Made by a program: the position numbers and the translations under genes
Part shown: positions 1 through 21,053 of the stretch, one piece after another
How positions within the stretch are numbered: position 1 is the first letter of the stretch
Layout: each line of letters opens with the position of its first letter
Source of the DNA: Rhizaria sp. SCN 62-66
Lineage: Eukaryota
Direction: 5' to 3'
Length of the DNA stretch: 30,707 nucleotides
Assembly (NCBI GenBank): GCA_001724265.1
Contig: MEDY01000071.1
Location: 62,001 to 92,707 of the forward strand
The notes under the pieces: generated by a model
Database searches by the model: none
What the model saw: only the letters and a program-made list of their open reading frames with translations
Told to the model about the DNA's origin: nothing

Positions 1-2059
1 TGGGGCGGTCATACGTCGCGTCCTGCTTGTACCACACGCGCACCGCGGGCGCCGTCGCCGTCTCCGGGATCGCGGCCAGCGCGGCCGCGGCGGCGGCGTC
101 GGGAGAGGCGTCGCCCGTGGAGGCCGCGGTGGCCGCCGCGAGGGCCGGAGCGGCGATGGTGTCGACCTCGTGGATGATGACGGGGGGAGCGATGTGCACG
201 ACGGAGTCCTCGGGCACGGTGTCGACGAAGGCGCCACCGTTAAGGTCGTAGAAGGGCTTGAGCTTGAGTGTCTCCTTGGTGGGGAGCCACTTGTTCTTCT
301 CGGGCAGCGCGAAAACATCGCTGGCCTGCGCCAGGAGACTCTTCTGGCCGGGGGCAGCGAAGCGGGCCCAGAGGTCCTTCTGCTCCTCGTTGAAGGAGCG
401 GATGCCGAACTTGATGTTGTAGTGGTGCTCCGTCTGGTCCAGGGTGACGCCGAAGAGCGTGTCAACCTTAGGAGCAGAGATAAAGAGGGTCATCTTGCTG
501 GGAGTGAAGGCGTCAAGCATAGCCGTGACGTCCTTCGCGGACCACTGGTGGAAGAGCACATCGCCCGACACGACATGCTCGCGACGCTGCCAGCGCATCG
601 ACGCGGAGAGACGCGAGACAACCTTGCGCGGGTCGGCCTTGGGCTGCCAGTTGAAGCCGAGCTCGGCGATCTTGGCCATCTCGTCGTAGCGCCACTGCTC
701 CACGCCCTGGGCGCGGACCACCGAGAGGTACTGGTACACGGCGGCGATGATCTCGTCCGCGTGCGGCACGCCGCGCGCAGTCATCGTCACGTCCACAGTG
801 AACAGTCCAAAGGTGTGCGCGTTGACCTGGAGCCCGGCGTTGAGGGCGGTGATCCAGCCCTTAGCGCGCAGCAGCGAGACGAGCGAGCCCGCGCCGTCGG
901 CCTCGATGAGGTGCGCGATGTAGGACGCCGCGTTAGTCTCGTAGCTCGCGATCTGCGACGGGACGGGCCACTGCAGAGACAGCGTCTGCTCGCGGCGCAC
1001 GGGTGCGTAGTAGACGGTGGAGCCGACCAGGGACGCGTTGTACACAGTGGCGTGCGTGTCGTTGTACTTGACGGAGCGCGAGTGCGCAGGGCGCTCACCG
1101 CTGGGGCGGACCTCGGAGAAGGTCTGGTCGACCCACATGGCGAGGGTCTTGAGCTCGTGGCCGCCTAGCACGACGACGCGCATGTTGCCCGCGGTGTAGA
1201 ACTCCTCCCAGAGCTTGACGAGCTCGGCGCGGAGGCGTTCCTTGGGGTGCGCGCCCAGCGTCTCGACGGAGCCGGTGCCGAACTTGGAATAGGGCGACGA
1301 GGGCGACGCGACGTGGCGACGGATCTGCTGCGAGCGCCAGCCGTCAGACTCAATGTTCTTGCGGTGCTCGGCGTTGACGGCGTTCATCTCGCGGTCCGTG
1401 TTATCGACAGAGAGCGAGGGCGCGATGAAGAACTGGGCGAAGTGGTCGAGGCCATCCTTGAGGTACGAGGGGAACACGTCGAAGTAGTAGTTGGTGTTCT
1501 CCATCGAGGTGTATGCGTTATTACCGCCGCCGTGCTTCTGGATGTAGGACTCGAAGGCGTTCTCGGAAGGGTACTTCTTGGTGCCGAGGAAGAGCATGTG
1601 CTCGAGGAAGTGGGCGAGGCCAGCAACGTCAGACGGGTCGTTGAAGTAGCCGACGCCGACATCGACGGAGCAGGCAGCCTTGCCGGTGTCGGGGTCTGAG
1701 ATGAGGAGAACCTCGAGACCGTTCGCGAGACGGATCTGCGCGTACTTGTTCGTGTCCATCTCACCGGATTCGATGGTGGCGTCGCCAGAGTTGTTGAGAC
1801 CCGGGTAGTTGGGGATCTTGGACTCGTCCAGGGTGCCCGCGCCAACACTGTCAAGCATGGTCTTGGCCTTGTTGGTGGGCTTAGCCTGCGCAGCGTCCAA
1901 GCGCATGTAGTTGCGGAGGCCATCACCACGGCGAAGCGGGATGTTCTCGTAGCCCTCAAGCTCCACCACGTTCTCCGAGAAGAGGCCATGGTTAAGCCCC
2001 GTCGCGGCTACAACCGCGACCAGTGCCATCAACAGTGCCAAAAGCACATGCTGTGACAT
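1..2059 (-). CDS. IDE: Insulin-degrading-enzyme-like M16A zinc metallopeptidase (insulinase) with N-terminal signal peptide; 3' end runs off the window
   Basis: Stop-free frame from ATG 2059 to the window edge, so it is absent from the ORF track. Translation MSQHVLLALLMALVAVVAATG...LANGLEVLLISDPDTGKAACSVDVGVGYFNDPSDVAGLAHFLEHMLFLGTKKYPSEN...GGGNNAYTSMENTNYYF...DREMNAVNAEHRKN; inverted zinc motif HFLEH at 1598-1612; ...RVWYKQDATYDRP at the edge. Confidence 0.93.
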   Translation of the reverse strand, partial: MSQHVLLALLMALVAVVAATGLNHGLFSENVVELEGYENIPLRRGDGLRNYMRLDAAQAKPTNKAKTMLDSVGAGTLDESKIPNYPGLNNSGDATIESGEMDTNKYAQIRLANGLEVLLISDPDTGKAACSVDVGVGYFNDPSDVAGLAHFLEHMLFLGTKKYPSENAFESYIQKHGGGNNAYTSMENTNYYFDVFPSYLKDGLDHFAQFFIAPSLSVDNTDREMNAVNAEHRKNIESDGWRSQQIRRHVASPSSPYSKFGTGSVETLGAHPKERLRAELVKLWEEFYTAGNMRVVVLGGHELKTLAMWVDQTFSEVRPSGERPAHSRSVKYNDTHATVYNASLVGSTVYYAPVRREQTLSLQWPVPSQIASYETNAASYIAHLIEADGAGSLVSLLRAKGWITALNAGLQVNAHTFGLFTVDVTMTARGVPHADEIIAAVYQYLSVVRAQGVEQWRYDEMAKIAELGFNWQPKADPRKVVSRLSASMRWQRREHVVSGDVLFHQWSAKDVTAMLDAFTPSKMTLFISAPKVDTLFGVTLDQTEHHYNIKFGIRSFNEEQKDLWARFAAPGQKSLLAQASDVFALPEKNKWLPTKETLKLKPFYDLNGGAFVDTVPEDSVVHIAPPVIIHEVDTIAAPALAAATAASTGDASPDAAAAAALAAIPETATAPAVRVWYKQDATYDRP

Positions 2060-2618
2060 GATTCACTGTAAATGTGCAAACCAAAAGTAGTGAAATGTGC
2101 AAGCAAAGTGAGACACAGAAAGTATAAACCAATGAGTGGGGCCTCCCTTGGGATGGATGGTTCGACGGCAAATAACATCATGTAAAAGAACATTCCCGTC
2201 AGCCTATACAAGTGTCTGGGAAGTATATGATTTTTTAGTGGGTACAATATCGTGTCGAATCACTCTTAAAAGGAAAACCGGAAACTATTCCCCTCTAATA
2301 GATGGCTAAGGTCGTGTCGTCACTCGGCCTCCCCTCCTTCACGATTCCCTCTCGACGATTTTTTGCGAACCGTTCCTGCCAGACAGAGTGATTCTTCTCG
2401 ACGTCAAGGAAGCAAACTTCCGTGTCCTGTAGCCGACCATATGATCGTTCTAATGAAAATGTTTTTTACTAATCAGTATTTCTGTAATGCATTCTTTGTA
2501 TCCATGTAATAATATGTTCTATCATGCCACCTATATCTCCCCGCACCACATTCTGCGAAGATGCTTTGCTCACAGTGCGCGACGCTTTTCCCCCGCTATT
2601 GCTTCCGCGCAGACCCCA

Positions 2619-4547
2619 ATGAGTTCCCTCAACACTCTTGTGTACCAGTACATGATGAGCAAGGGCTTGATCCGCGCGGCCAAGGAGTTCGCCAAGGAGT
2701 CCGGTGTGGCCTCCAACATTGAAGCCAGTGCCATGCTCGAGGCCATCTACAACACGTTCGAGGAGAAGACCGCCGGCCCCAGCGACAAGCGCGCCAAGAA
2801 GGCCGGCGCCAAGGACAGCGACCGCGTCGTTCAGCTCGGCAAGGGCAAGGGCTCCGACTCGGACTCTAGCTCCGACTCCGATTCCGATTCCTCTGATTCC
2901 GACTCGGATGCGAAGCCCGCTGCCAAGAAGGTTGCCGCCCCCGCCGCCAAGAAGGCTGACTCAGACTCGGACTCCTCGGACTCTGACTCCTCTGATTCGG
3001 ACGCGAAGCCCGCTGCTAAGAAGGCCCCCGTCGCCGCCGCCAAGCACGCTGTGAAGAAGCCTATGACCGACTCGGACTCCTCCGACTCCTCCGACTCGTC
3101 CGACTCTGACGCTAAGCCCGCTGCCAAGCCCGTCGCCAAGGCTGCCCCTGCCGCCAAGAAGCCCGCTTCCGACTCCGATTCTGACTCGGACTCGTCCGAC
3201 TCTGATGCAAAGCCCGCCGCCAAGCCCGCTGCTAAGGCCGCTCCCGCTAAGAAGCCTGTTTCCGACTCGGACTCCTCGGACTCTGATTCCTCCGACTCAG
3301 ACGCCAAGCCTGCCACTAAGTCCGCTTCTAAGCCTGCTGTTAAGCCTGCTGCTAAGAAGCCCGTCTCCGATTCCGACTCCGACTCTGATTCCTCGGACTC
3401 GGACGCTAAGCCCGCTGCTAAGCCTGCTGTTAAGCCTGCTGCTAAGAAGCCCGTCTCCGAATCCGACTCCGACTCTGATTCCTCGGACTCGGACGCTAAG
3501 CCCGCTGCTAAGCCCGCTGCTAAGCCTGCTGCCAAGGCCGCCGTCCCTGCTGCGAAGAAGCCTGTTTCTGATTCGGATTCGGATTCGGACTCCTCTGACT
3601 CCGATGCTAAGCCTGCTGCCAAGCCTGCTGCTAAGCCCGCTGTCACGGCCAAGAAGCCCGTCTCTGACTCCGACTCTTCTAGTGACTCTGACTCCTCGGA
3701 CTCTGATGCTAAGCCCGCCGCCAAGAAGCCTGTCGTGGCTGCCAAGCCCGCCGTTGCGTCCAAGAAGGCCTCTGTCTCCTCCGGCTCCGACTCCGACTCC
3801 GACTCGTCTGACTCTGATGCCAAGCCCGTCGCCAAGAAGGCCGCCCCTGTTGCTGCTGCGAAGATGCCAGTCTCGGACTCCGACTCGGATTCCGACTCTG
3901 ACTCTTCGTCGTCTGTGTCTGATGCTAAGCCCGCTGCTAAGCCCGCTGCCAAGGCTGCTCCCGCTGCTGCTGCGAAGCCTGCTGCCAAAAAGCCTGTCTC
4001 GGACTCTGACTCCAGCTCCGATTCCGACTCTGATTCTGATTAGGATGCTAAGCCCGTTGCCAAGAAGGCCATTGCGCCCATGAAGATGGCCGCTGCAAGC
4101 GACAGTGACAGCGACTCCGACGCGAAGCCTGCTGTGAAGAAGGCTGCGCCCCTGAAGATGGCCGCTGACAGCGACTCCGACTCCGACTCTGACTCGAGTA
4201 GCAGCAGCTCCGATTCCGAATCTGAAGACGAGGCCCCTAAGAACAAGAAGGCCGCCGCCAAGACCCCCGCGCGCTCTGCGACGTCGGACCGCATTGTGGG
4301 CTCGGCCAACAACACGCCGTTCCGCCGCGTCGCCGACTCTGAGGCGGAGGAGCTGCACCCTCTGATGCGCAACAACTCCTACGCTGCACAGAAGTCCATC
4401 GGTGCCGCCACCCTTTTTGGCCAGAACGCCGACAACGTGCTGATCAAGACCCAGGGCAAGTCGTTCATCAAGGCCAAGAACAAGTTTAAGAACAACTACC
4501 GCGGCGGTGAGCTCGACTGCGTTGTGCGCAGTCACAAGTTCAACTGA
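2619..4547 (+). CDS. NOLC1: Nopp140/SRP40 nucleolar phosphoprotein (~642 aa) containing one in-frame TAG at 4041-4043
   Basis: N-terminal LisH-like MSSLNTLVYQYMMSKGLIRAAKEFAKESG; alternating Ser/Asp and Lys/Ala/Pro blocks; SRP40 C-terminal domain (TPFRRV...NNSY...LIKTQGKSFIKAKNKFKNNYRGGELDCVVRSHKFN) in the same frame after the TAG; ends TGA 4545-4547. Confidence 0.9.
2852..4230 (+). repeat. Coding tandem repeats of Nopp140: SDSDSDS..SDSDAKPAAKPAAK units
   Basis: Recurrent tccgactccgactctgat and gctaagcccgctgct blocks; near-identical units around 3330-3510. Confidence 0.9.
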
Positions 4548-4825
4548 GCATTAAACCTGATATGATGGTCGAACAAAACAATCCGCTGGTGGTTTGTTTC
4601 GTTGTGCATGTCTGCCGAGCTTCACAAATCTCCTTATCTTTATCATGACGTCCAGTTGATGCCGAAGGTGGCCAAAGAATATAAACAATACAGAGAGAAA
4701 ACATTGAACACAATGCATGCACAACACACGAACTACCATGGACTGGTGTAGATTAAAAATGACTATTGTATACATTGTAGACTAGATAAACGAGCTCATG
4801 TGTGTGTAAATACATCAACGGGAGC

Positions 4826-7800
4826 TCATTCTAACTCGGCAGTCGTCGTCGCCTCCGCACTGCTGTTCGTCGTCGTGCTCGCTGGCACAGCCGCTGCCTT
4901 CGCCATCGCTGCAGCAACTGCAGCACTGACGACGGGCAGCTCGCCTGCGGCCTTGCCGGGTGGCGCGCTCTGCGGCTGCGCACTGAGCCCCGCGCTCATA
5001 ATGAGGTTCACCGGCAGCGCGGTCTGGATAACGTGCTGCACGCGCCGCCGCAGCCGCGAAAGCTCTTGGTCAACCATCTGCATCCGCACCGGCAACGACA
5101 AACCGTCCCCAGCGCCTGTCGCAGCAGCTGCTGCTGCTCCTGCGCCGGACGCTGCTGCGCCCGCGGCGGCTGCGGCCCCGCTGGCAACTGCGCGCGCGGC
5201 CTCGATGCGGCCGTTGAGAGCGGCCATCTCGCGGCCCACGGTCATCATCGCCGCGGTCTGCGCCTTGGCGTCGTTGCGCAGCGCCGCGATGTCGCCCGCC
5301 TGCTGCGTAGCAGTCGCCGTCAGCGCGGTAACCTGGCGCTCCAACGCGCTCGCGCGCGCCGCAGCCGTGGCCGCAGCGGTTGCAGACTCTTGCTGGAGCT
5401 TCGCCAGAGCAGCGCGGAGGGCCTCCGCTGCCGCCGCCTCGGCCGCGCGCTCGTCCGCACGCTCATCAGCTTCGCGGCGCGCGTTAGTCACAGCGGCGGC
5501 GAGATCAGCGTCAGCCTGCGCAGCACGACGCGAGGCCTGCATGCGCTCAGCTGTCGCGTCTGCAGTCGCGGTCTCGAGCTGTGCGCGCGTGGCCGCGGCA
5601 CGGGCCAGCTCGCCCTCGAGCTCGGCGACGCGCTCCTGCAATCGCTCGCGCTGCGCACGCTCCCAGCGCTCCGCGGCAGCCGCCACATCGGCCTCGGCGC
5701 GCGCGGCTGCTGCGTCCTGTGCCGTGCGTAGCTGCGACTGTGCGGCGCGCGCGAGCGCCGTTGTGGCGGCCAGTGAGCGTGCGGCGCGGTCAATGGTCGC
5801 CGCACGGGCCGTGGCCTGTTCCTGTGCGAGTGCAAGGCGCGTGGAGAGATCGTGGCCTTCGCGCAAATGACGCGCCTCCATGGCGCGCACACGGTCGATG
5901 AGCATGCGGATGTGTGCGAGGCCCTCCTGGTGCGACTGATGAGCCTCAGCATGCGACTGGCGCGCCGAGGTGAGCTCCTTCTCGGTGCCCCGCAGCTGCG
6001 CACGCAGAGCTCCAACAGCATGTGAGAGTTCTTCCTTGCCCATCTCTGCCAGCGCGAGCTGCAACACAAGGTCGTCGACCTGTGACTGGAACGCACGCGC
6101 CGCGCGCCGGTCGGACATCGTCCCCGCGCCAGCGCTGCCTGCACCCAGGTCCCCGTATACGCCCGCCGCGGCGAGACCCGTGGCCGCGGCGGTAGCTGCG
6201 GCGACGACGCCGCCCGCGGGCCGCGCGACATCATCAAGCACGTGGCGAGTGAGGTTGTACTCTGTGCCAAGCGCAGCGTACGCGGCCGCGGGGTCGAGCT
6301 GGGACTCATCACGCGCGCGCGTGACCGACGTCCAGTGGTAGAATGTCGACTCGCCGGAGCCCATGGCCCAGATGCGCCGCACAACAAGTGCGTCAGCAAC
6401 GACAAGCGCGTTCGAGTACTTCGCAGACGCCTGTAGCGTGCCACGAAAAGCCATTGTGCGCGCATCCCAGGTGTAGATGCGCGGGTCTTGTCCGCACGAC
6501 CACACTTGGTCCCCGACGAGTAGCAGGCACTGCACGCGCGCGCCGGGAAGCTCGACCGACGACAGTGGCACCGGCGCCGCGCCCAAGGTCCACGACGTGA
6601 TCACGCCCGTCTCCGTCGCCGTCCACACGGTGGAGCCCGTGGAGATGATTGACAGCACAGAGCCGCGGGCCAGGTCCAGCGCGGCCACGCACACGCCCGT
6701 GGAGAGGTCCCACAAACGCAGGACGCCGTCGTCGCCACCAGAGTAGAGCAGAGACAGCGCCGCTGGTCCGCGCGCGGCCGCGGCGTCAATCGCGGCGGCG
6801 GCGGTTGCGGCGTCCTTCGTGTTAGCTGCAGCAGTCGTCATCGCCGTGGACGTCACCGCTCCTGCTGCAGCCGCGTCACCCGCAGTGGTTGCAGCAGTGA
6901 CCGTAGATCCTGTCGGTGAAGGTGCAGGAACGATGGCATCAGTGGGAATCGCGCTGGCGCCGTCGGGCCTGACCGCAAGTCCGCATGACAATGGCAACAG
7001 ACTGCGCACGCCGTTCGTGTGTCCGACAAGCACACGCCTAAATGTGCCATCGCGACTCCACACCGCGATAGAGAAGTCCAGCGACGCTGTGACAACGCAC
7101 GTCGATGTGGGGGCAATCGCGGTGACACAGCCTGCGTGCAAGTGCAGAGTGCGCACGAGGCGGCGGTCCACGGCGCGGTACACCAGCACAGTGCCGCGGC
7201 GAGTGCCGACCCACACCGTATCAAACGGAAAGCCAGTATTAAGCTCTTCAGACAGCGGCGGTGCGACGGGCGATTGCTGTTGCTGCGCAGACGCATCGCC
7301 AGCACCATGGCCGGTTGCGTTGGCAGGAGAAGTGGTGGAGAGCTTTGAGGGCGACGCAGCAGAGGGCGAGAGCGCGCGCCTGCCGCCGGCCAAAGCGCCC
7401 TTGGCGTCGGCGCGGCGGGCTGCGCCGCCGCTGGCGTTGGTGGGCGAGGCTTTGCCCGAAAGTGTGCAGTCGCTCACCGTCGCAGCACCGGCATCACCAC
7501 CGTTGCCGTCACCGCCGTTATCATCGTCGTCATCGTCCTCGTCATCCTCGTTGTCGTCGCCGTCGTCACCACCGTCAAGCCCGTCGCCAGCGCTACCGCG
7601 ACCGCGGGCCTTGGCCGCCAACAGCAGCGCCAGACGTTCCGCGCGCACCACAGGATGGCCCACTGGGATTTTATTGACCGCAGTCAACTGCGCCAGATTG
7701 AGATTGCCGGCGCCACCAGCGGACCCTGCGTTGCTCGCTCCAGCACCGGCCTTGCCCTGTCCGCGAGCGCGACGCGACGCCGCACGGCCTCCTGCAGCAG

Positions 7801-10800
7801 CCACCGCGGTCGAAGCGTCCTCGTCGTCGCCGCCAGCCTCACCCTTGGCAGCGCCGCTGCCGCTGGCATTGCTGTTCGAGTTTGCGTTGTTGGCGCCCTT
7901 GCGCTTCTTGCCGCCTGCAGCAGCGGCGCGCTCCCACTCGGCCAGCGCGCGCTCGTCCGCGGGCACGCCGCCGACGGGCACGAACGCCACACAGGCGGCG
8001 ACGTCCTGCGGCGAGAGACTGGCCAGCACAGCGCCCGTCTTGGGGTCGCGCACCGTCACGCCGCCCGCGCGCTCGACGCACCACATGGCGCCCGCCGCGC
8101 GCACGGCGCCACGCAGCGAGGACGACGGCGTCGCGCCCGCCAGCGCCTGCTGTGGCTCCAGGGCCTGCCACTGGGACACGCTGCCCGCGGCGGGCGACAG
8201 CGGCGACGGGGCGCTCGCGCCGGACCCCGGGCCAGCGCCAGCGCCGGCGCCGGCAGCACCGGAGCGAGTGCCGGCGCGGGCGCCGCGTGCGTTCACGCCA
8301 GCGTTCGCGGCGCTTGAGTTGGACGTCGCGGCGGCGGAGTCGCGCTGCTTGCGGTGCGAAGATGACGCGCGCGAACCTGCGCCAGCGCCAGTGCCACGCG
8401 CGCCAGCGCCGCCGCCGGTCGCGCCAGCGGCGTGTGTGGAAGTGCGGGAAGGGGAGCGCGAAGGCGACCGAGCGGGACCCTCGCGCGACACTGCGCCGCC
8501 GCGCCGGCCCGGCTCCGCAGCAGCGCTAGCAGCAGTAGAGCCTGTGATGGCGGGCACACCGGCGGCCGCGATGACGGCGGCAGCCGCGGCAGCCGCGGCC
8601 GCGCGCCTCTCGAGCGCAGCACCCGCGGCGGGGCCTAGGTAGCGCCGCGCGAGCCGCAGCAGCAGCCCGCCGACGCGCGACGCCACCGCGGGGTCTGCGG
8701 AGGCGCGGGCGCGGAGCCCGCCGGCGACGCCGGGCAGCGCGACACGGGTCACACCCGGGCCGCCCGCGGCGGCGGACGCGGCGGCAGCGGCCGCGGCAGC
8801 GTCAGCGGCGGCGAGCGCGGGCAGCGAGGCCGTCGCAGGGCGGGCCGGCGCCGCAAGGGGCGCCGAGGACAGCAGGCTCGTGCTAAGACTGGCCGCGGCG
8901 GCCGCGGCGGCAGAGGACGCCGAGGCCGAGGCCGCCGTGGCGGAGGCGGCGGCGGCGACAGTGGCGAAGGCGGCCGCAGGGTCCGCCTCGTCGGCCTCGA
9001 CGGGGACGCGGATGAGCCGGAAGCCCGCGGGCATGCGGACGCGCAGCCGCAGCAGGTCGTCGACGTTGAGGATGCTGTCTTCGCCGTCCGCACTCGTGAC
9101 GCGCGGCGCAACCGCGACAGTCGAGCTAGCTGCAGCAGCAGAGTCAAACGCGTTAGCATCAGTCTGGCCGTGGCTCGGGTGGCGCGCGGCAAGAGACGGC
9201 GCGGCAGGGACAACGCCAAAGCCAGACTGTTGTTGCGGCTGCGATGGAGCGTTGGTGACCGTGGCCGCGACGGTCGCTGCGACCGTGGCGGCCACAGTGG
9301 GTGGGAGCGGCCCGGCGTGTTGCGCCTTGCCGAATGAGGTTCCATCCCAGGGCAGTACGGCCGCGGCGTCGGCGGCGTCTTCCGCGGCAGCGCGCTCGGC
9401 CGCACTCAGTCCTGCGCCTGCGCCGGCTTGACTGTGGCCATGCAAACGCGCGCTCGCGAGATTCGCGTTGCTGTTTGGAGCAAAAAACGCGCTGTCGCTG
9501 CCGTCATCAGCGGGCGCAACGCCGCTAGCACCGCCAGCAGCACCAGCACCAGCGCCAGCGCCGGCGCCGACGCCGGGGCGGGGCACAGCGACGCCGCCTG
9601 CGGTGGAGGAGGCCGCGTAAGTGTTGTGGAAGCGCGCTGAGATGGGCCCGCGCAGCAGCACGGCGCGGCGTGCGCTCGCCTGCCTTTGCTGGCCCTGCTC
9701 GACGCCGTGGCTGTGGCCTTCAGCGGCAGCAAGCAAGGCGGCGGCGGCCGAGGTAGTGGTGGCTCCGGCCACAGCGGCGGCGGCGGCGCGGGCCGCAGCG
9801 AGGTCGAGCGGGGCAAGCGCGCCCGCGCCCCACTGCGTCGGCGTCGCGGCGCAGTGCGGCGGCAGCGCTGCCTGGGTCGAGCCCGCGCCGCTGGAGCCCG
9901 AAGCGGCGGCGGAGACGGCCAGGAATCGGGTCAGACGGAGCGAGGCTGGGATCGCGGCGGCCGCAGCTACAGCGGCCGAGGACACATCGTTGTTCTGCGC
10001 GGCCGCTGCGGCCGGTGATGAGCTGCTGGTGGGGCCAGGGAGCAGTGGGATCGAGTACGTCGGGGGGTACTGAGGGGCCGCAGACGCAGCGCTGGCATTA
10101 GGAAGCCCGCCATGTCCGCGCGTATTGCTTATGATTGCGGCGCGCGAGATGCCCGGCACGACAATCCCCGGTACACCCGCAGCCGCGGCAGGCATGGGGG
10201 CACCGCGCACGTGCGGCAGCACCGCGCCGTCCGCAGTCGTCGCGGTGGGCGAGCTGTCTGCCGCTCCCGCGGAGGACGGCATGGGCCGCTGCGGGGCCGA
10301 CGTGAGCGGCATACGCAGGTCGGAGCGCGGGTTGAACGGCCGAGCCGCGTCCCAGCGCACCGCAGCGGAGTCGACCCCCGTGGCGTCGCCGGTGGCCGTC
10401 GCCGTGGCGTGCAGCGGCGGTGGGGGCGGCTGGAGCTGGGAGCCGAGCGTGGCGGCGAGTCCTTCGACTGAGGAGTTCATGACGCGCGTCGTAGTATTGT
10501 TCGCAAGTGACGGCATGTCGGGCGCCAGGTAGAACGGCGCGCCCACGTGTGCCGCGTGCTGCACAGCAGAACTAGTAAGGAACGGGAACACCTCGCGCAG
10601 TGCCGCCTGCAGCGCGGTCGGTGTGCGCAGCGTGTCAACTGCGATCGCGGCTGGGGCAGTGAAGCGCGAGGAGATGCCAGAGTCTGCGCTCTCGGACGCT
10701 GCAGCTGCCAACGCGGCAAAGGCGTCATCGGGGCCCGTAGTCGCCATAGGCGCAGCGGGAAACGCAGGAGACGAGCTGGCATTCAGGGCCGCTGCAGAAA

Positions 10801-11095
10801 TTGGAGGCGCAGAAGTGCGATTTGCTGAACTTAGCGGTTGTGGCTGCATGGGGAACGTGTCGTTGGGGCTGTCGAACTCTGGCGACGGAAGCGCAACCAG
10901 GTCCTCGTTGGAACCTAAATGCTGCTGCTGTTGCTGTTGTGTCTCAATGTGGGATGTGAGAGAAACCGCAAGGTCGTCAGGGGACAATGTGGGAATCTCG
11001 GTAGCCGTTTCTGTCTGGGCAAAAGGCGAAAGCATGTCAACGCCTCCCAAGTCGGACGGGCCAAAGCCATCCTCGTCGGACTAGGCAAACGACAT
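4826..11095 (-). CDS. Large Ala-rich protein with WD40 beta-propeller and C-terminal coiled coil (~2089 aa from ATG 11095 if TAG 11081-11083 is read; otherwise start at ATG 11035)
   Basis: 6.2-kb uninterrupted frame ending TGA 4826-4828. WD40-type strings VWVGTRRGTVLVY, HAGCVTAIA..VVTASLDFSIAVWS, LVGHTNGVRSL, LLYSGGDDGVLRLWDLSTGVC, VWSCGQDPRIYTWD; E/R/A/Q-rich helical C-terminal region. Confidence 0.8.
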
Positions 11096-11513
11096 GGAAC
11101 TATGTGCGGAAAGCTGGGCCAATGGCTCAACAGCAAGGCTCCAAGCAGAGGTGCTGAGTGCAAGAGACTTGAACGGAGGTGAAGTCTGCTATCAGTCTGT
11201 GGAGTACATGATGGCAATAAAGTGAAGAGATGTAAGGCCAACCATCCGTCAGTACAGGATTCATTAGAAATCAAAATGGGCTAGTGCAGATAAATATATG
11301 TACATAAAATTGCAAGGAATATCATTGCGTATATGAGGATATAACCGCAGTAACATGGTAAATCGATAGGTGACCGTGAGCAGTAGCTCACAGTCAGTCC
11401 GCGGCCTGACTTCAAGGCAGTCCCACCGTCGTCCAGTTCCAAGGAGGCCACCCTGGTCTCGAGACGCCCCCTTCGAAAGCCCTTTTGCCGCCAATTGAGA
11501 GGAATATCGAACC

Positions 11514-14500
11514 ATGCGTTTTTTCCTTGCTCTCCTGTTGGCCATTGTGTCGATTGGAGCTGTTGGTACGTCTCTATGTCCTTTTCCCGCGCCCCTGTAC
11601 CCCCCTTTTTCGCTTGGCCCAGGGCTGCTTCACCCCAGATCAAGGGGAATCAGTCCGAGCCTTTGTGTGCCGGTGAACGGCCCTGAAGGATATTTTCAAT
11701 GCCTGTCTAGGACACATCCGCGATCTATCTCGTCTCTTTGTCTCTCCCTTGCCGGATCTTTCCTCTCCGTCATGTCCTATACCCTCATTGGATAACCTCC
11801 ACGATGCCCCTTCTCACCCTGTCCCTGTCCCGAACCCATCCCTCTTTATGCTCTGTGCCTGCCCTGACCTCTGCTTCGTGTATAGCCGCCGATCACCGCT
11901 ACGCGGACCTCTCGCTCCAGGAGCTTGAGGCTCTTGCTGTGGCCGAGGCAGATGCCATGGAGTCCTCTGCTGCCTTCCTCGAAGGCGCTAACGTGACTGT
12001 TCCGGCTCCTCCTGCCTCCAACGCCACTCTCCCTGTCAACGGCACCAACCCCGCGAACGTGACTAATGCCACCGTTCCTGTTGTTGCTCCTGCTGGGAAC
12101 TCGACCGCCGGTGTCAACGTCACTGGCGCCGCTGCTGCTGTCACCCAGCGCCTCGAGGCCGTTAAGGCCGCTGCCTCCATCGCTGCCCGCGACAACGCCC
12201 GCAAGCAGATCATGGCCGATGCCCCCATCATCTACAAGCGCATGCTTGCCGTCGAGGACATTGAGAAGGCCAAGGGCGAGGCTGCGCTTGAGGCCGTGGA
12301 CCAGATCCGCTCCGCCGCGCCTCTCGAGGGCATCCCCGTGCTTGAGGCCCGCAAGTTCGTCCGCGAGGCTGGTGCCAAGGCTGCTGAGCTCGTCGCCCAG
12401 AAGTCTGGCCTCGGCGCTGTCACCGACAAGAACAACGCCATGGCCCGCGCATCCCTTGACACCATGCGCCGCATTCTCCGTGATGCTATTGAGGCCGGTG
12501 TCCAGGCCGGTCTCAAGTCCGTCGAGTCCGAGGTTGACGTCCTTCCCAACTTTGCCACCGCCCTCAACGCGTCCGTCTCGTCGCTCCCGGCCCCCAAGCC
12601 TGTCGTGGTTGCGCCCAACGCCACCGCGAACGCTACCGGCAACGCCACCGTCGCCGTCAACGCGACTGGCCCCCGCCCCAACGGCAACGTGACTGTCCCC
12701 GTTGTTGGCAACAACACCGCGGCCCTCCCCCCTGCGCCTGCCGCCCCCGCCGCCCCTGCCGCCCCTGCTGCCCCCGCCGCCCCTGCTGCCCCTCCTGCCC
12801 CTGCTGCTCCTGCTGCCCCTGCTGCTCCTGCTGCCCCCGTGTCTCTGCTCGAGCTCGAGGCCGGCGTCGACGTGGCCGCCTACATCGCTCTCGAGGCTGA
12901 GCTCGCGCTCGGCTTCGGCATCGACATCGACGCCATGCAGCTCGCTGAGATGGACGCCAGCCTCGACCACGAGGCCGTCGCCGAGGCCCAGGCCGCCGTC
13001 GACGCCGAGGCTGAGGCGGAGGTCGACGCTGAGGCCGAGGCCGAGGCCGAGGCTGAGGCTGAGGCCGAGGCTGAGGCTGAGGCTGCGGCTGAGCTCGACG
13101 CCGAGCTTGACGCCGAGGTCGATGCTGAGGTTGATGTCGAGGCTGAGGCCGACGCCGAGATCGAGGCTGAGGTCGAGGCCGCTGCTGAGGCTGACGCCGA
13201 GGCCGAGGTCGACGCTGAGGCTGAGGCTGAGGCTGAGGCTGAGGTCGACGCTGAGGTCGAGGCTGAGACCGAGGTCGAGGGTGACCCCGTGATCGGCGAC
13301 TCGCCCAACACTGCCGTCAATGACGCCGAGCGCCGTCTCAAGATCGTCCAGTGGCTCAACGCCGCCGCCGCTGCCCCCGCGAACCAGAAGCTGTGGAACC
13401 AGTACGCCGACGACAAAGGTGACTCGTACTACGCCAACACCATCACCATGGAGGTGACCTGGCGCGCGCCCTCAGAGGCCGACAAGCTCAAGCTTGCCCG
13501 CGACTTTTCCTCCGAGTCCGACGTCCCCAGTGCGTGGGGCGCGTGGAAGAACAACTTCATCACGGCCGTCGACCACGACCTCCTGAAGAAGCCCCGCGAC
13601 TGGTGCAACCCCAACCTGTGCAAGAACGGCGTGCCCTGCGTCAACGGCAAGTGCCAGTGCGGCCTGATGTTCGAGGGTGACATGTGTGAGCGCCCCTCCG
13701 CGCTTGCCCGTGACCTCCGCTTCAAGCAGGCTCTCGAGAGTGAGGTACTTTAAACAAACATACTGCTCCTTAGGTCTGGATGGAATGGAATGAGTTGTGC
13801 TGATTTGCTTATAATACTGTGTTGATGTTGTGAGATATATGAACCGAAAATCAAAAGAAAATAACTGTGGAAGCACAGGCAACAACTTGGTATTGTATGT
13901 GTCCCTGAAGTTGTGTATTCTGTGTGTGTCTGGTCTCGGGGTAGTAGCGTACGTCGTCTGTTGTTGTGAGTCAGTCTGAAGTTGCTTGATCGCGCGGTGG
14001 TGGTGTGTGAGTGTTGTGGTGCACCACTGTCACTGCGTACTTACTACTGTCACCTGCGTCATCAAGCAAACGCAGCTCTCCACCACATGCAGACGCGGAG
14101 CTCTAGTCCTATCCGCACCCACGTAATACACACTTGGAACACATTTGAACAAGTACAAAGTATCACTATTAACTTACCGGTTGTCTAAATATTCACTCAC
14201 AAATCACTGTCTTGCCTTCCTTGACTTCGCTTTTTCTCTCTGCTTAGGGTGCTGACCCTTCCGAGCGTCTCGCCCGCGAGGCCGCTGTCGCCAAGGCCGC
14301 TGCCGACGCCGACCTCAAGGCGCGCACTCTGCCCACCTCTGAGAACGACGAGCCCCAGTTCGCGATCGCCGCCGAGGGCTCCTACATTGCGCAGTCGCTT
14401 GTCGACACCGAGACCGGCTACGTGAACCCCAAGGCCAAGATCGAGGGCCCCGTGTCTGCGTCCAAGTACACTCCCAACGTGGCCCGCTACGTTGACCACA

Positions 14501-14787
14501 TGCTGATGCACAACGCCCCGCACCAGAACCTGCCCTCTGCGCCCTCGCAGCTGCGCAAGGCGATGGCCACCACCCGCGAGGCCTTCGTCGCCAGCCATAA
14601 GGTCCGCTCCTTCATGGACAAGAACGGCCCCGCCACGCTCCCCAGCGTCAATAAGACGCACATCGAGCTCTACGTCGCCCCCAAGCCCGTCGTCGCGGTT
14701 CCCGCCGCGCTCAACTACACGCGTGACATCATGAACAAGGAGCCCACCGTCCAGCCTGAGCCCGTGGTTGTCACCTCGCTCGTCTAA
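11514..14787 (+). CDS. Secreted protein (~816 aa): signal peptide, N-glycosylation-rich region, (PAA)n, (EA/EVDA)n tract, WW-like and EGF-like domains; join(11514..11565,11886..13744,14248..14787)
   Basis: Exon 1 MRFFLALLLAIVSIGAV + G|gtacgt; acceptor tatag at 11885; donor GAG|gtactt at 13745; acceptor tttttctctctgcttag at 14247; phases match; ends TAA. WW-like LWNQYADDKGDSYYANTITMEVTWRAP; EGF-like CNPNLCKNGVPCVNGKCQCGLMFEGDMC. Confidence 0.82.
11566..11885 (+). other. Spliceosomal intron (320 nt, phase 1)
   Basis: GTACGT...pyrimidine-rich...TATAG; joins the signal-peptide exon in frame to the long ORF. Confidence 0.82.
12728..13280 (+). repeat. Coding low-complexity repeats: (Pro-Ala-Ala)n at ~12728-12838 and (Glu-Ala)/(Glu-Val-Asp-Ala)n at ~12970-13280
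   Basis: gcccctgcc/gcccccgcc and gaggct/gaggcc tandem units are visible directly. Confidence 0.9.
13745..14247 (+). other. Spliceosomal intron (503 nt, phase 0)
   Basis: GTACTT donor at an abrupt GC-to-AT transition; polypyrimidine tract + TTAG acceptor; biased codon usage resumes in frame at 14248. Confidence 0.78.
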
Positions 14788-15046
14788 ATATCGTGCGCCG
14801 GACTTTGATGATGGTGATTTGGTTGGAGGAACTGTGTCTTGAGACCGAAGACGTGTGCGTTTGCGAAAGTGAACGTGCACTGTACAAATTGCATGCTAGC
14901 AGCGAGTTTATACACCACTGCCGTAATACACATTGATTCAAAAACGAAATCTGCCTTATATATTGTATTGCACAGAGACGTTTATAAAAGTTTTAAATTG
15001 ATATTCGTCGTGCGGTTGTGGCTAAAACTGTTTCTGTTGTTTCCTG

Positions 15047-17021
15047 TCACACCGGCTCTTGCACCCGACGCCGCGCCTCCGCCGCTGCCCGCGCACGCAC
15101 ACACGTGAGACACTGGGGCCGCAGCTCAGCCAGCGTACCGGCATCATCTGCCCCTGTCTCAGCCTCTGTTGTCGCCGTCGAATGGTGGCGCTCAAAGCTC
15201 GAGTGGCGGCTGTAGTCACAGTTGTTGCAGTAGTTGCTGTGAGACCTGCGGTAGCGGCAACTGTTCTAGCTGGTGCTGTTGGGAAGTGAGTGCCGTGACG
15301 GAGCTGAGTGGGCAGCTGGCGACGGTGACTGATGCTGCTGCTGATCGAGGAACTTGACCGTATTGTTGCTGTCGTTGCGAGCGTCAGGGCCCAGTGGTGG
15401 TTTACTGGAGATCGTGGCAGCATGTTGCTTCTGTGTGGGTACCGGTGTAAGTGGAGCAGCTGATGTCACCCGAGCATCCGTGAACACATTTGCATCTGGA
15501 TGCTGTGCTTCTGCCACTGTCAGTACTGCTGCTGCTGCCTTGGCCAGTGGCACATTTGCACTGGTCTCCGTCGTCTTGGTCTTTGGCGTCGTCACTGCTC
15601 CCGGTGCCGTCGTCGGCTCCGATGAGGTCGGTGCTATCATCGTAGCTGATGTTGTTGTTGCAGCAACTACTGCCAGAGCTCGTGTATGTACGAGAGGAAC
15701 CTTGGCAACAGTTCGCGGCTTGGCCTCAGCTACCAGCGGCGGTGGCCGAACCCATGCGTAAGGCGCCACGACGGTCCAGCTTCCTGCAGCCAGTTGAGCG
15801 ACACCGTGGCCAGAGTGCAGCGTCCTCTCCGCCGCTGCTGCGCCTCTTGCTGTCATGGTCTTCGTGGTTGCTGCTGTGGCTTGATTCGCGCCGACAGCGT
15901 AACCATCCCTGGCACCAGCAACAACGGTGAGCAGCAAGGGCATGGACACGGCAGCGGCAGCGACATCGAGTCGACTCACACCGGTGCGGCTGCCTCCACT
16001 GCCAAAGCTAGTCGCAGCACTTGTGACAGCAATCGTCGCCCGCGCTGCCCCTTTTCTTTGAGGAACTCTGGCTGAAACAGCTGCAGCCGCGCTATTGATA
16101 ACGCGGTCAGCTTTTGTTGCGTCATGTGAGGCGGCAGCAGACAGCACTAGCGGTGAGACTCCTCCAGGCTCCGGCGCCGTCGTGATCTGTGCCGTGGCAT
16201 AACTCAGCACGCCTGTGTTGTTAGTGTTTGTGGCTGTACTGCTGATCTTGTCGCAGGGCAGCGCATCAGGCTGGGTGGTAAGCACTGGAAACGCAGAGCG
16301 CGCGTTGCGCAATGCAAGGGGTGGTCGCAGCTTACTGACATTGGCACTGGTGCAACTCGCAAACACTCGAGCGTTAGCCGTTCCTGCACTAGTTTGTATC
16401 GCAGTAGTGTTGTTTGACACAAGTGAGACATCGCTGCTACCCGCTGCTCTCGTCAAAGTATCGGACGCGGCAACGTCTTGAGCCGAGGAGACTGCAGTGG
16501 GGGCAGTGAGGGTGAGAGTGATCGTGGCAGACGTCGGCAGATGAGAGATTGGAACACGCTTGACGCGCTTATGCTTGCAAGAGGCAACAAGGACGTCAGG
16601 GTTAAAAACTCTTGACGGCTACTGTGGCGGCGACAGCGTGGCTCCAGAGTCGGAGTCGCCAGAGACAGCAGAGATGTCAGTCTCATGCTGCGCTGTGTTG
16701 CCGCAATCGTTATCGTCGTCACTCTCGCGCCAGGGAACATGCAAAACAGCACAATCAAGCGCAAACTTAACAGCCCATGCGTCCACAGGTGGACTCAGAC
16801 TGTCTTGCAGCTTTGCATCATCACGGAACACAACTGGCGTGCCCTCATGATCGCGCGATGTCTGGAGCTTATCAACACCCCGTGACACGGTGCCTAGAGG
16901 CATTGTGCTCGGAAATGCACCCTGTAAATCAATGCAATAACAAGAAATTCATTCGTAAGCGTTGTTTATGGATCATTGAGATGATGTACAAGCCTGTTTA
17001 AGCGATGAAGTAGCGTACCAT
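15047..17021 (-). CDS. Thr/Ala/Ser-rich hypothetical protein (~625 aa) with two in-frame TAGs; join complement(17019..17021,15047..16921)
   Basis: ORFs 16619..16903 and 15266..16456 share a frame. That frame has no TAA/TGA from 16921 to TGA 15047-15049, only TAG at 16619-16621 and 15266-15268. Upstream cacgATG|gtacgc (17021-17013) and tttacag| (16922) give an in-frame phase-0 intron. Confidence 0.6.
16922..17018 (-). other. Putative spliceosomal intron (97 nt) directly after the start codon
   Basis: GTACGC donor, T-rich tract, TTTACAG acceptor; restores frame M|GAFPSTMPLG. Confidence 0.6.
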
Positions 17022-18047
17022 CGTGATGTGGGAAGGCTTGGATCCACGCGAGTGACCGTTGAGATATGCGGCCTCAACCGAAACGCTACAAAAGTATAGA
17101 TTTGTGTAAATGTAAGATATAGCAACAAAAATTAGAGTTAGCAACTGATATCTTTAATGACGGACTAATTAAAGCATGGCACTCCTTGGTCTTCGAGACA
17201 CTTATTCAAGTCACTTCACCACAAATATAATCACAGTCGGCCTAGCTGCTGTAGCAAGGGCGAAACAGCCTCAGATACAGCTGATTAAACAAGACAGCAT
17301 CAGTATAACTCATGTCTGCAAATTGTTTAACTACATGCTCCCAAATCTCTTCTCCTGTGTGCGTGAATTCCTCAAATGCCACGAAGATCCCGACGATCTC
17401 ACACATAATATTGCAATTATATCCATGCCCGCAAAGCCGCCAACGGCGTTGCAAACGGCATTAGATTAAAACAATATAGTTGTAAGGTATATCGTAAGGA
17501 TAAAAACGTCTGAGAGGGCTTTATGTTAGTAGAGCTTGTTTAGTGATGAAAGCGACCCCTCCCTTTAGCTCCCGGTCAGTCGACTCAAAAAACCTCGTCA
17601 CCACCTGCCGAAGAACCTCCTTTGTAAAAACGGGGTTTGTGGTTCTTCTCTCCATGAAAAGGCGAATCGGTTTATCAATTCTGCGTTTATATGACTCTTT
17701 AGTACTTCATTACAAATCCGGATGTGCCAGATGGCGACGTCTCGTGTGGTATTGACTCAGTCAAGTCAAGTTGATAGGAAGCGACGACTCCGACGACCCG
17801 CTCTCGTTTCAAGAGTCATTTTCATCATATTACCGTAATTGAAACGAAACAAGTCATGAAGCGCAATATTGCCGGACTGGCGAGGTGCTGAGATTTGATT
17901 ATGATGGTGCTGTTTTACCGACAACTGCAACTTTTTTTTGTTGTTTCCCATCCGAACCTCTCGTAACGCTCCTACCCTTCTCATACCCCTTTACCCTTCT
18001 CACGCGCAACATGCTCGTATAAACCCTTTTGTTTAGACTCGAGGCTA

Positions 18048-21000
18048 ATGCGGTTCATTACCAGCGTTCTCCTCGCCGTCGTGGCATGCTGGGCCGTCGC
18101 TGCACAGGCGTCTGCGGCGTCCCGTGGCGTCTCCCCCATGGCCAAGACGCTCCTCGCCCACTTGGTCACCGAGCTCGAGGACACCAATTCCGGTGCCGCC
18201 GCGTCCTCTCTGAGCAGCGAGGGTCACAACAGCGCGCGTTTGTCCGACTACTCGACTCCGTTCGCGTCGCTCGACCGCTCGCAGAGCCTCAACTCGCGCG
18301 CGTCGGGCGTGTATCGCTCTCACGAGCGCCTCTTCGTCGAGATCTTCTCCGCCGCCCAGCGCTACCACAGCGAGGGCGAGGAGGTCGACGCCGAGGTCCT
18401 TTCGCTGCACGAGAAGCTGTACGACTTCAAAGACGCCCTCGCGCGCGAGATCAGCCCCCGTGACGCGTCCTACACAGCCACCCCCGAGGGCGCGGCCGCC
18501 TTCCTCAAGTCCTACCTGGCCCTCACCTCCGGCGAGGACCGCGCGTCCCCCGCCGCGGTCGCGGCCGCCGAGCGCCTGTTGGCGCAGGTCAAGACGGTGC
18601 TGCCACCGCCCGCCGAGGTGCACGCGCGCCGCCTCGCGGCCCGCAAGCTGACGCTGGATCCCGCGCACCCGTCGCACGTGCAGCTGCTCTCGGCAACCGC
18701 GGGCCTCCGCGCCTTCGCGGCAGACGGCTCGCTGCAGCCGTTGGCGAGCTTCGCCGCCGAGGACCAGCGCGCGCTGCTGGGCTGGATTGTGGCGGGCGAG
18801 CCTGCGACGTTCGCGTGTCAGCAGTGCAAGGACATGGTGCGCGCGATCCGCGACATCGCGAGTGTGCTGGCGCCCGAGCACGTGGTCAAGCTCGTCAAGC
18901 CCATCTGCGCCACGGCCGCGCACTGGCTCGTCCCGCTGATCCCGCGCGAGACGTGCGACCCCGCGGTCGAGGGCGAGTGCACCATGTTCTGCGAGGGCAT
19001 GCTCGAGTCCTGGGGCCCCAGCGTGACCGAGCTCATCATCGGCATCCTGGCCGACCCGCGCAAGCGCTGCCACCAGCTCAAGGTGTGCCCCGCGCCCGAC
19101 GAGGACCCCGTGCCGCAGCCGACGTTCCCGGCCACGATTGTCGAGTCCGCCGGCGCGTCCGCGGCCCACGGGTCCTCGCGCATCCTCCAGTTCTCCGACG
19201 TCCACCTGGACGAGTTCTATGAGGTCGGCTCGCGCGCCGAGTGCAAGATGCCCGTCTGCTGCCGCGGCCCCGCGCCCGCGGGCACGGGCACTGCGGGCAC
19301 CTTTGGCCACTTCAACTGCGACGCGCCCGACGTGCTGATTAAGTCGTGCTTCTCGCAGATCCCGCTGACCAACGTGAGCCACGTCGTCTTCACCGGCGAC
19401 TCACCCGCTCACGACCTCTGGATGCAGACCAAGGAGGGCAACATCGGCGTCATCACGCGCGTCACCGACTGGGCAGTCGAGGCCGTCAAGCTCGCCACGC
19501 ACGTCCAGCGCACGGGCGCAACCATCCTCCCGCCGGTCCCCGCGGCCGCGCGGTACGGCCGCTCCGTCGGCTCCGAACGTGCGCCGCAGTGCCCGCGCAA
19601 CGCCGCCGCGCTCGACATGTGGACCGCGCTTTTCACCGCGCCCTCCGCCGTCAAGCACACCAAAGCCAACTCCGGCTCCGACGCCGGCGCCGAGATCGAC
19701 GCCGCCGTGCGCTCGGCCGCGGCATCTGCCCGCCTGGCTGCTCTGTCGATCGCGCCCGAGGACAACTCGCTCGCGGCCGCCATCAACGCAGGCGTGCGCT
19801 ACTGGCCCGTGCTGGGCAACCACGCCGCGGCGCCCGTCGACCAGTACGGCGGCCCCGCCAAGGACCACTGGCTCTACGGCGCCGTGGGCCGCAACTGGGC
19901 GCGCTTCCTGCCGCCCTCGGCCGTGGCATCGTTCGTCTACGGCGGCTACTATACTGCCGTCATGGAGCCCGGGCTGCACGTCATCGGGCTGCAGACCAAC
20001 TACTACGATCCAGTGAACCTGTACCTGCTGTACGCCGAACACCCCGACCTGGGCGGGCAGCTGGGCTGGCTCGAGTTCGTGCTCGCGCAGATCGAGGCTA
20101 AGGGCGAGAAGGCGCTCATCATCGGCCACGAGCCCGTGTCGACGTGGGCCAAGGGCTACTGGCCCACACGCTACCTGGACATCATCACGCGCTACGCCGG
20201 CTCCATCTCGGCCACGCTCTTCGGCCACGTTCACTCGGACCACTTCCACGTCGTGTCGAAGCAGTCGGTGGCCGAGGCCGCGGCCACGCGCTCCCCGCTC
20301 TCGGACCTTGCGGCCCGCACCGTGACCGCCGCGGCGCGCACACTCTTCGCCGCCGACCCCGCCGCGGCCGCCAAGACGGCCGGCTGCCCCGCCACCAAGG
20401 CCCTGATGAGCGCCTCTAACGTGGACCGCATCGCGCAGTCGCTGTCCGCGCCCGCGGTGGGCCCCGTGTCGGCGCCCGTGGACCCGGCGTCGCTGACCCC
20501 GGTCGCAGTCGAGTACATCCCCAGCTCCGTGTCCCCCATCGGCGAGTCCACCAACCCGTCGTTCCGCGTCTACGTCATGAATCCGCAGACCAAGGGCTTC
20601 ACCGACTACGAGCAGTACCGCGCCGACCTGCTTAAGGCCAACGCGCGCGGCGTCATGACCTGGGAGAAGGTCCACATCGCCTCGCAGGAGTACGGTCTCA
20701 AGGACCTCTCGCCTCAGTACGTTTTAACCATCGTATCGCAATTTCTCTCTCTGATCACAGCATCAAAACATTAGCCTCAAATCACCACCTTCTGACATTC
20801 TATCATCATATCTCTGCCAACGTTTGTTGTTTTTTCTCTCTTTATTGCTGCGCTCTCGTGCAGGGAGATGCACCGCATTGCGCTGCGCGTGACGCAGGAT
20901 GACGCGCTGTTCCGCACTGTCGTCGACAACTACTACGGCGGCACCAACAAGACGCGCACGGGCGACCGCCTGGACAAGCGCGCCATGGGCTGCTACCTGG

Positions 21001-21053
21001 CCACGGCCACCGCGGCCGGCAAGGCCTCTTGCGTCGAGTACTTCAAGCAGTAA
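18048..21053 (+). CDS. SMPD1: Acid sphingomyelinase-like phosphodiesterase with signal peptide and saposin-B domain (~952 aa); join(18048..20716,20864..21053)
   Basis: Signal peptide MRFITSVLLAVVACWAVAAQA; saposin Cys pattern CQQC...C...C...CHQLKVCP; metallophosphoesterase motifs FSDVHLD, C..PVCCR, FGHFNCDAP, FTGDSPAHD, LGNH, IIGHEP, LFGHVHSD, PSSVSP..NPSFRVY; ends TAA. Confidence 0.92.
20717..20863 (+). other. Spliceosomal intron (147 nt, phase 2)
   Basis: GTACGT...ttttttctctcttt...GTGCAG; CA|G joins to GAG ATG CAC in frame. Confidence 0.88.

Follow-up and report, generated by a model that had tools for sequence, protein, structure and literature searches.

We analysed a 30,707-nucleotide stretch of DNA (hereafter the window; positions 62,001 to 92,707 of the forward strand of contig MEDY01000071.1, assembly GCA_001724265.1, deposited as Rhizaria sp. 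SCN 62-66) in which TAG codons stand inside otherwise continuous protein-coding frames. A first-pass annotation, made from the letters alone, had proposed that the nuclear genetic code of this organism reads UAG as a sense codon, tentatively glutamine, with UAA and UGA retained as stops. Words sampled from positions 10500-17500 were found in bioreactor, wastewater and activated-sludge sequencing runs from several studies dated 2015 to 2025; the window must therefore be a contig assembled from a metagenome, and its organism, which is uncultured, is known from wastewater and bioreactor metagenomes alone. The host is a GC-rich, intron-poor eukaryote with spliceosomal introns, as seen in a spliced contig from an RNA library. 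GC is 61% over the whole window, in which blocks with a GC of 0.65-0.85 (third-position GC, GC3, of 0.85-0.95) are interleaved with spacers at 0.38-0.47. The genes are as follows, their identities resting on Pfam matches except for the FG-repeat gene and the open reading frame (ORF) that we call g3.

2-2062, reverse strand: M16 insulinase-type peptidase.
2619-4547, forward strand: Nopp140/SRP40-like gene, a single exon ending at TGA 4545-4547 (translation, Pfam and repeat units).
4826-11035 (or 11095), reverse strand: WD40/coiled-coil gene of 2,069 codons.
Forward strand, exons up to TAA 14787: WW-domain gene.
15047-16903, reverse strand: g3, a single-exon orphan ORF that runs for 618 codons between ATG 16903 and TGA 15047.
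18048-21053, forward strand: acid-sphingomyelinase-like gene.
23460-24505, reverse strand: eIF2-beta, with exon 1 at 24505-24431, an intron at 24430-24105 (GTACGT...TTTTAG) and exon 2 at 24104-23460, ending in TGA (Pfam, sequence and donor scan).
Forward strand: LSM gene.
Reverse strand: HMG-box gene.
28696-30705, reverse strand: FG-repeat gene, read as nucleoporin-like solely from its GFGALA repeats.

The first-pass annotation had counted four in-frame TAGs in three genes, and all four were found at the places and on the strands given for them. Three of these, at 4041, 16619 and 15266, are internal to their genes. The first lies in the Nopp140-like gene, where the TAG at 4041-4043 (forward strand) is codon 475 of the frame 2619-4547. 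Upstream of this codon the frame encodes a LisH motif (amino acids 4-28, E 5.8e-05) and downstream of it, in the same frame, an SRP40_C domain (amino acids 567-641, about 4317-4541, E 3.5e-14), both above the Pfam cut-off. The SRP40_C match covers the entire Pfam model (positions 1-76 of 76), and the TGA terminator of the gene follows one codon past it. Together with 13 repeat units, in which acidic Ser/Asp tracts alternate with Ala/Lys/Pro, this gives the N-terminal LisH, acidic-serine/basic repeats and C-terminal SRP40_C that define the Nopp140/SRP40 family, all in a single frame, with TAG 4041 in the low-complexity repeats between the LisH/acidic-repeat part and SRP40_C. The frame remains open for 167 codons past the TAG (4044-4544), which 0.6% of composition-matched shuffles manage likewise, and GC3 reaches 0.81-0.87 in this downstream part. 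TAG 4041 is an in-frame TAG within a continuous coding frame, neither in an intron nor an error.

Pieces of the window genes are already deposited as separate proteins (P0126, P0127 and P0128). P0128, the ORF fragment that begins after TAG 4041, is found as a call on 5 contigs that come from three sources, and the longest contig with a P0126 or P0128 call is listed at 192,589 bases; in 90% clusters these fragments have one member each, with no read-through variants. A first protein search for full-length relatives of the Nopp140-like gene was swamped by low-complexity words and returned 4 distant matches (31-36% identity). A search among shorter proteins recovered the window's own fragment and P0129, a 60-amino-acid ORF that is 85% identical to window 4365-4544 and represents an SRP40_C fragment of a related organism. 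Searches with P0129 gave no match in viral_contigs or genome_contigs, and in metagenome_contigs only L001, which corresponds to window 3061-5443. The P0129 ORF, which lies on a contig of 6,793 bases, begins at a methionine inside SRP40_C, about 20 residues past the domain start, its frame being interrupted by something upstream, and its source label, 'archaeosine-15-forming tRNA-guanine transglycosylase', looks like a mis-annotation.

The other two internal TAGs, at 16619-16621 and 15266-15268 (reverse strand), are codons 95 and 546 of g3. The g3 frame contains 3 stops, compared with 14-33 in the other five frames, and its codon positions are G-rich at the first and C-rich at the second, as is typical of coding sequence; its product is rich in Ala, Thr and Ser, and GC3 is 0.55. 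The 94 codons from ATG 16903 to TAG 16619 are open, as they are in 2.4% of shuffles, and the stretch 16622-16948 is kept open in 1.1% of composition-matched shuffles. The ORF that separates the two TAGs is 450 codons long and lacks an ATG over the first 225 of them; TAG 16619 does have an ATG in frame, 94 codons upstream of it. Past TAG 15266 the frame is open for 72 codons up to TGA 15047, an opening that is weak evidence when taken alone because 13% of shuffles of 15050-15265 also stay open. The GC-rich block of g3 stops at TGA 15047, not at TAG 15266.

Two other views of g3 were rejected. It is not the antisense shadow of a forward-strand gene with CTA codons, since the forward frames hold 17-24 stops and the reverse frame has coding-type codon positions; nor does TAG 16619 serve as a splice acceptor (CAG-TAG), as there is no donor motif upstream on the reverse strand. 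Of the 12 cysteines in g3, 5 fall within the 72 residues past TAG 15266 (15050-15265), among them those of two CxxC motifs that are separated by about 40 residues; this is a possible zinc-binding tail, which would be made only if this TAG were read through.

The fourth TAG, at 11081-11083 (reverse strand), stands 4 codons past a candidate ATG (MSFA*), and the next ATG comes 15 codons after it. A diverged strain carries a 2-base insertion at 11102, just upstream, so that the sequence upstream of the TAG is non-coding. TAG 11081 most likely belongs to the 5' untranslated region (UTR) of the WD40/coiled-coil gene and is not evidence for a changed code. With it falls one of the contexts from which glutamine had been proposed (FA*S beside a nearby FAQT).

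Several lines of evidence place the three internal TAGs in exons. The introns of the other genes provide the comparison.

11566-11885, forward strand: intron of the WW-domain gene (GTACGT...TATAG), joined in the spliced RNA-library contig.
13745-14247, forward strand: second intron of the WW-domain gene (GTACTT...CTTAG), linking ORF 11886-13744 to 14248-14787 (TAA); joined in the same spliced contig, with 255 letters on the shorter side.
20717-20863, forward strand: probable 147-base intron of the acid-sphingomyelinase-like gene (GTACGT...TGCAG) with an in-frame TAG (20772) inside it, suggested by its motif, by a fall in GC and by the continuity of the frame.

In the contig from RNA library X5, position 13742 is joined to 14246 and position 11564 to 11885, each time at GT..AG boundaries. 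The two RNA-supported introns and that of the sphingomyelinase-like gene start with GTACGT or GTACTT, measure 147-503 bases and have a GC of 0.41-0.55, and four further sites of the GTAC[GT]T type end short first exons (eIF2-beta, LSM, HMG). The coding strand of 2619-4547 and of 15047-16948, when scanned for GTA[CAT][GT]T donors, proved free of them. There is no dip in GC at the TAG sites, and an in-frame intron removing TAG 4041 would need to be about 48 bases long, against 147-503 in the known introns. To judge from these sequence features, TAGs 4041, 16619 and 15266 are exonic rather than intronic.

The window has few introns; they are placed close to the 5' gene ends and have an unusually strict GTAC[GT]T start, also at 24105-24430 (reverse strand), at 25864-26047, and at 27699 and 28209 (reverse strand). 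Three of the four acceptors that could be read are TAG, and many exons therefore start directly after an in-frame TAG, which can mimic TAG-bounded ORFs. In the HMG-box gene, motifs suggest a likely 18-base micro-exon at 27700-27717 (reverse strand), between a CAG acceptor and a GTACGT donor.

The TAGs recur in material from outside this assembly, which we compared as contigs: contigs of another study (X3), a diverged strain (X4) and two RNA libraries (X5 and X8, the latter poly(A)). X3 and X4 each have all three internal TAGs, and no other letter is listed at any of them. The X3 contigs over 3485-5443 and 13285-16050 show 0 differences to the window and cover TAGs 4041 and 15266. L001 is 100% identical to window 3061-5443 over 2,383 bases and keeps TAG 4041. 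X4 differs at 20 positions in 5,767 listed bases (about 0.35%), with no difference listed at any TAG, and its own changes adjoin the TAGs (4048, 4069, 15316 C>T and 16618 G>A). TAG 16619 is present in contigs from both RNA libraries, unspliced and with its letters unchanged; the X8 contig keeps it beside 16618 G>A, and X5 has the window's letters at 16618, though contigs are no proof that the RNA was mature. Because of this recurrence in contigs of other studies and in L001, the TAGs are not assembly errors. At 13474-13525 one X8 contig has 8 differences over about 52 bases, 7 of them synonymous, which suggests that activated sludge also holds a sister strain or species at a greater distance.

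Turning to gene ends, the ten termini given by the first-pass annotation were all confirmed: TAA at 14787, 21053, 26386, 27171 and 28696, and TGA at 4547, 4826, 15047, 21879 and 23460. Past them the frame is open for just 5-29 codons, and in nine of the ten the following 210 bases have a GC of 0.39-0.48, the exception being the HMG gene, which is followed by a GC-rich block without a clear coding frame. By comparison, the 167 open codons past TAG 4041 have a GC of 0.60 and a GC3 of 0.74, and past TAG 15266, with its 72 open codons, GC is 0.64 in the next 210 bases and GC3 is 0.71. These observations support TAA and TGA as true terminators. None of the eight termini that are independent of the read-through model is a TAG, a small sample, and nowhere in the window does an ORF whose frame has coding signal close on a TAG behind which GC falls. 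Candidate TAG ends at 15022 and 28752 were rejected as off-frame shadows of g3 and the FG-repeat gene. Across about 7,265 modelled codons we count three disabling-looking changes, all TAG, with no frameshift and no TAA or TGA. The earlier statement that nothing else interrupts the genes stands only with introns modelled, as TAG 20772 and TAA 13751 are in frame and fall in introns.

The lineage of the host was approached through the M16 peptidase, the one gene of the window used to place it; a look-up of eIF2-beta in the Atlas yielded no placement. Its best match is 50% identical, and the matches that carry names are 33-40% identical, with stramenopiles on top among the matches listed. In a quick tree of 29 rows hand-picked from 120 listed matches, it clusters with five environmental proteins (P0006-P0009 and P0011; 37-56% identity) with an SH-aLRT support of 99, and this clade includes none of the eukaryotes and bacteria that carry names there. 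The placement suggests an unsampled lineage. Three of the five tree neighbours are far below full length although their contigs would have room for more; introns or in-frame stops could be the cause.

Taken together, these data lead us, tentatively and short of calling it probable, to a reading in which UAG is a rare sense codon, with UAA and UGA terminating, in an uncultured GC-rich wastewater eukaryote. What speaks for it is that three TAG substitutions occur in two of about 11 genes with no frameshift or other stop and with a complete domain downstream, that the TAGs are stable across strains and over a decade, and that by composition the genes end at TGA, not at TAG. TAGs 4041, 16619 and 15266 would then be ordinary rare codons in the two genes of weakest codon bias, UAG would be read by a tRNA whose anticodon is CUA, able to pair with UAG but not with UAA, and eRF1 would no longer recognise UAG efficiently. 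In a wider form the proposal is of similar standing, a possibility to which we would not yet give the better part of our belief: a previously unsampled GC-rich wastewater lineage in which UAG alone has become sense, an early-stage or low-usage reassignment seen in genes whose codon bias is weak, and a lineage distinct from those ciliates, fornicates and rhizarians that have UAG-only codes. Of the proposed code, then, the exonic and recurring TAGs, the GC drop after nine of ten termini and the lack of a TAG-ended gene hold up, and the reassignment itself is unproven.

As for the amino acid, glutamine is left without specific support. The sole TAG that can be aligned, at 4041, stands opposite a serine codon (TCN) in 12 of the 12 other repeat units, within Ser/Asp/Glu tracts, and in 4 of these the codon is TCG. 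Serine at the aligned positions probably means that TAG 4041 arose from TCG; it says nothing about what TAG encodes.

A number of observations weigh against the REASSIGNMENT reading. None of the TAGs coincides with a conserved column of an alignment, as the first-pass annotation had itself remarked in calling the amino acid tentative: TAG 4041 sits in low-complexity repeats and g3 is an orphan, and no conserved gene was found to have an in-frame UAG opposite a single conserved amino acid. The M16 peptidase, acid-sphingomyelinase-like, eIF2-beta, LSM, HMG-box and WD40 genes are open under the standard code without an in-frame TAG, and there is no TAG in the five genes with a full Pfam domain besides the Nopp140-like gene. 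TAG amounts to 3 in about 7,265 codons (about 0.04%). The window holds 0 tRNA genes and no Rfam match. RNA depth is zero in X5 and X8 at 4048 and 4069, beside TAG 4041, which leaves that TAG without RNA cover, and at 15316, near TAG 15266. Two arguments of the first-pass annotation also lose their force. That only TAG, never TAA or TGA, interrupts the frames carries little weight, because, with this codon usage, a one-step nonsense mutation would yield TAG in 90% of cases in the Nopp140-like gene and in 45% in g3. That none of ten termini is a TAG is partly circular, because both TAG-bearing genes would end in TAG under the standard code, which gives 5 TAA, 3 TGA and 2 TAG, a normal mix.

The behaviour of g3 between strains points in the same direction. 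Based on the 40 differences shown in the strain comparison (15 further ones lie outside the tally), g3 has 2 synonymous and 5 non-synonymous changes, compared with 18 and 4 in the WW gene (Fisher p = 0.016) and 3 and 3 in the WD40/coiled-coil gene at 4826-11035. As the random expectation is 26.5% synonymous, g3 behaves as neutral DNA, which fits a young pseudogene. Its codon usage is unlike that of all other genes here (a score of -0.53, against 0.06 to 0.62 for the others in their own frames), its homologues among 1.84 billion representatives were self-matches only, and it has no Pfam family. Downstream of TAG 4041 the listed strain changes are 0 synonymous and 2 non-synonymous.

These features are also what favours a second explanation, under which the code is standard and the TAGs are inherited premature stops: a TCG-to-TAG change would have cut the Nopp140-like protein before SRP40_C and been tolerated, and g3 would be a young pseudogene or dispensable orphan with two nonsense mutations, all of them older than the split of the strains and too young for decay to have set in. 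We hold this to be a serious possibility, if a somewhat doubtful one. The serine codons at the aligned repeats, four of them one step from TAG, the share of TAG among nonsense paths, the neutral changes and odd codon usage of the homologue-less g3, the non-synonymous changes past TAG 4041 and the absence of TAG from everything conserved all agree with it. Both genes are intronless, and a premature stop in them presumably need not trigger junction-dependent mRNA decay. The explanation nevertheless requires that two of about 11 genes were disabled by three substitutions and zero frameshifts. Indels would normally disable pseudogenes at least as often as substitutions do. It also has to accommodate an SRP40_C that is still complete, stops that are present in all the assemblies compared, from 2015 to 2025, the diverged strain included, and a GC-rich block of g3 that ends at TGA 15047 and not at TAG 15266. 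One 30-kb window cannot separate sense UAG from inherited premature-stop mutations.

A third explanation keeps the standard code and has the stops rescued in RNA or at the ribosome, by A-to-I editing of UAG to UGG, known from filamentous ascomycetes, or by unusually leaky termination at UAG without a dedicated tRNA. Only UAG is affected in the window, as this would have it, and there is precedent in genes with a premature UAG that require editing for the full-length protein (excerpts of PMC11156358 and PMC10776026). However, no A-to-G change is listed at 16619-16621, including its middle base 16620, in the contigs of the two RNA libraries, which is weak counter-evidence as contigs drop minority variants; the four TAGs share no common downstream context (GAT, TCC, AAC and CCG); and the M16 peptidase is at most 36% identical to named fungal matches and belongs to a clade apart from them. 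We consider rescue unlikely. Artefact, in the form of a base-call or assembly error, a chimeric contig or unrecognised introns that remove the TAGs, has in its favour that this is a metagenome contig whose Nopp140 repeats are hard to assemble, with many spurious joints there, and is very improbable, being largely refuted by the identity of X3 and L001 to the window around the TAGs, by X4, which keeps the TAGs beside its own single-nucleotide changes, and by the lack of donor motif, GC dip or sufficient intron length.

Some further features of the window concern repeats and composition. Long Ala-Glu (GCTGAG) repeats with a 12-base period occur in the WW-domain gene (12892-13349) and, as the reverse complement, in the FG-repeat gene (29994-30102), and the gene at 4826-11035 has extreme Ala-rich low complexity, with GC up to 0.85; contigs from other runs break in both kinds of stretch. 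A dispersed repeat was sought in the window as a probe for further contigs, and only coding low-complexity repeats were found. Neither the WD40 part of the 4826-11035 gene, searched in metagenome_contigs, nor eIF2-beta, searched in viral_contigs and genome_contigs, gave a match. In the GC-rich block directly 3' of the TAA of the HMG gene (26850-27170, GC 0.59-0.66), neither strand shows an open frame or a codon-position signal, and there is no Rfam match; a 3' UTR is one possible identity for the block, an unrecognised non-coding RNA another.

UAG-only nuclear reassignments are few, those in print including Iotanema, the rhizarian exLh and some ciliates. Excerpts of PMC5304391 describe nuclear codes of this UAG-only kind in Iotanema spirale (UAG=Gln) and exLh (UAG=Leu), the latter with 384 in-frame UAGs in 71 genes, many at conserved positions that fix the amino acid. 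The window resembles these two in that only UAG stands in frame, other stops end genes and a tRNA with a CUA anticodon is the predicted decoder. Unlike exLh with its many conserved UAGs, it has 3 in about 7,265 codons, none conserved; and, as a difference from both systems as excerpted there, TAA (5) and TGA (4-5) are both among its termini. For phyllopharyngean ciliates, excerpts of PMC11687900 report UAG reassigned to Leu or Gln, with widespread usage and with suppressor tRNAs in metagenome-derived genomes. The likeness here is that UAG alone is involved and that the finding comes from environmental assemblies of uncultured protists; in contrast to the widespread UAG and suppressor tRNA genes of those ciliates, the window is 61% GC with 0 tRNA genes in it. 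The restorative A-to-I editing that acts on premature UAG in Fusarium and Neurospora, as presented in excerpts of PMC11156358 and PMC10776026, shares with the window a genomic in-frame TAG in otherwise intact genes, there under a standard code. It differs, as a stage-specific process in those fungi, in that the RNA contigs of the window show no edited base at 16619-16621. A literature search for nuclear UAG reassignment in a stramenopile, labyrinthulomycete or wastewater-assembled eukaryotic genome found none, a result that speaks for that search alone.

If the code is standard after all, the window records a tolerated loss of SRP40_C in a Nopp140-like protein and a dying orphan gene, both ordinary events. 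If UAG is instead a sense codon here, standard gene callers split such genes, and P0126, P0127 and P0128 already stand as separate entries in databases. The case would then be notable, among the UAG-only codes already known, for the rarity of the reassigned codon: in a GC-rich genome of very strong codon bias, with TAG at so low a frequency, it would show a code change at the seldom observed stage when the new codon is still rare.

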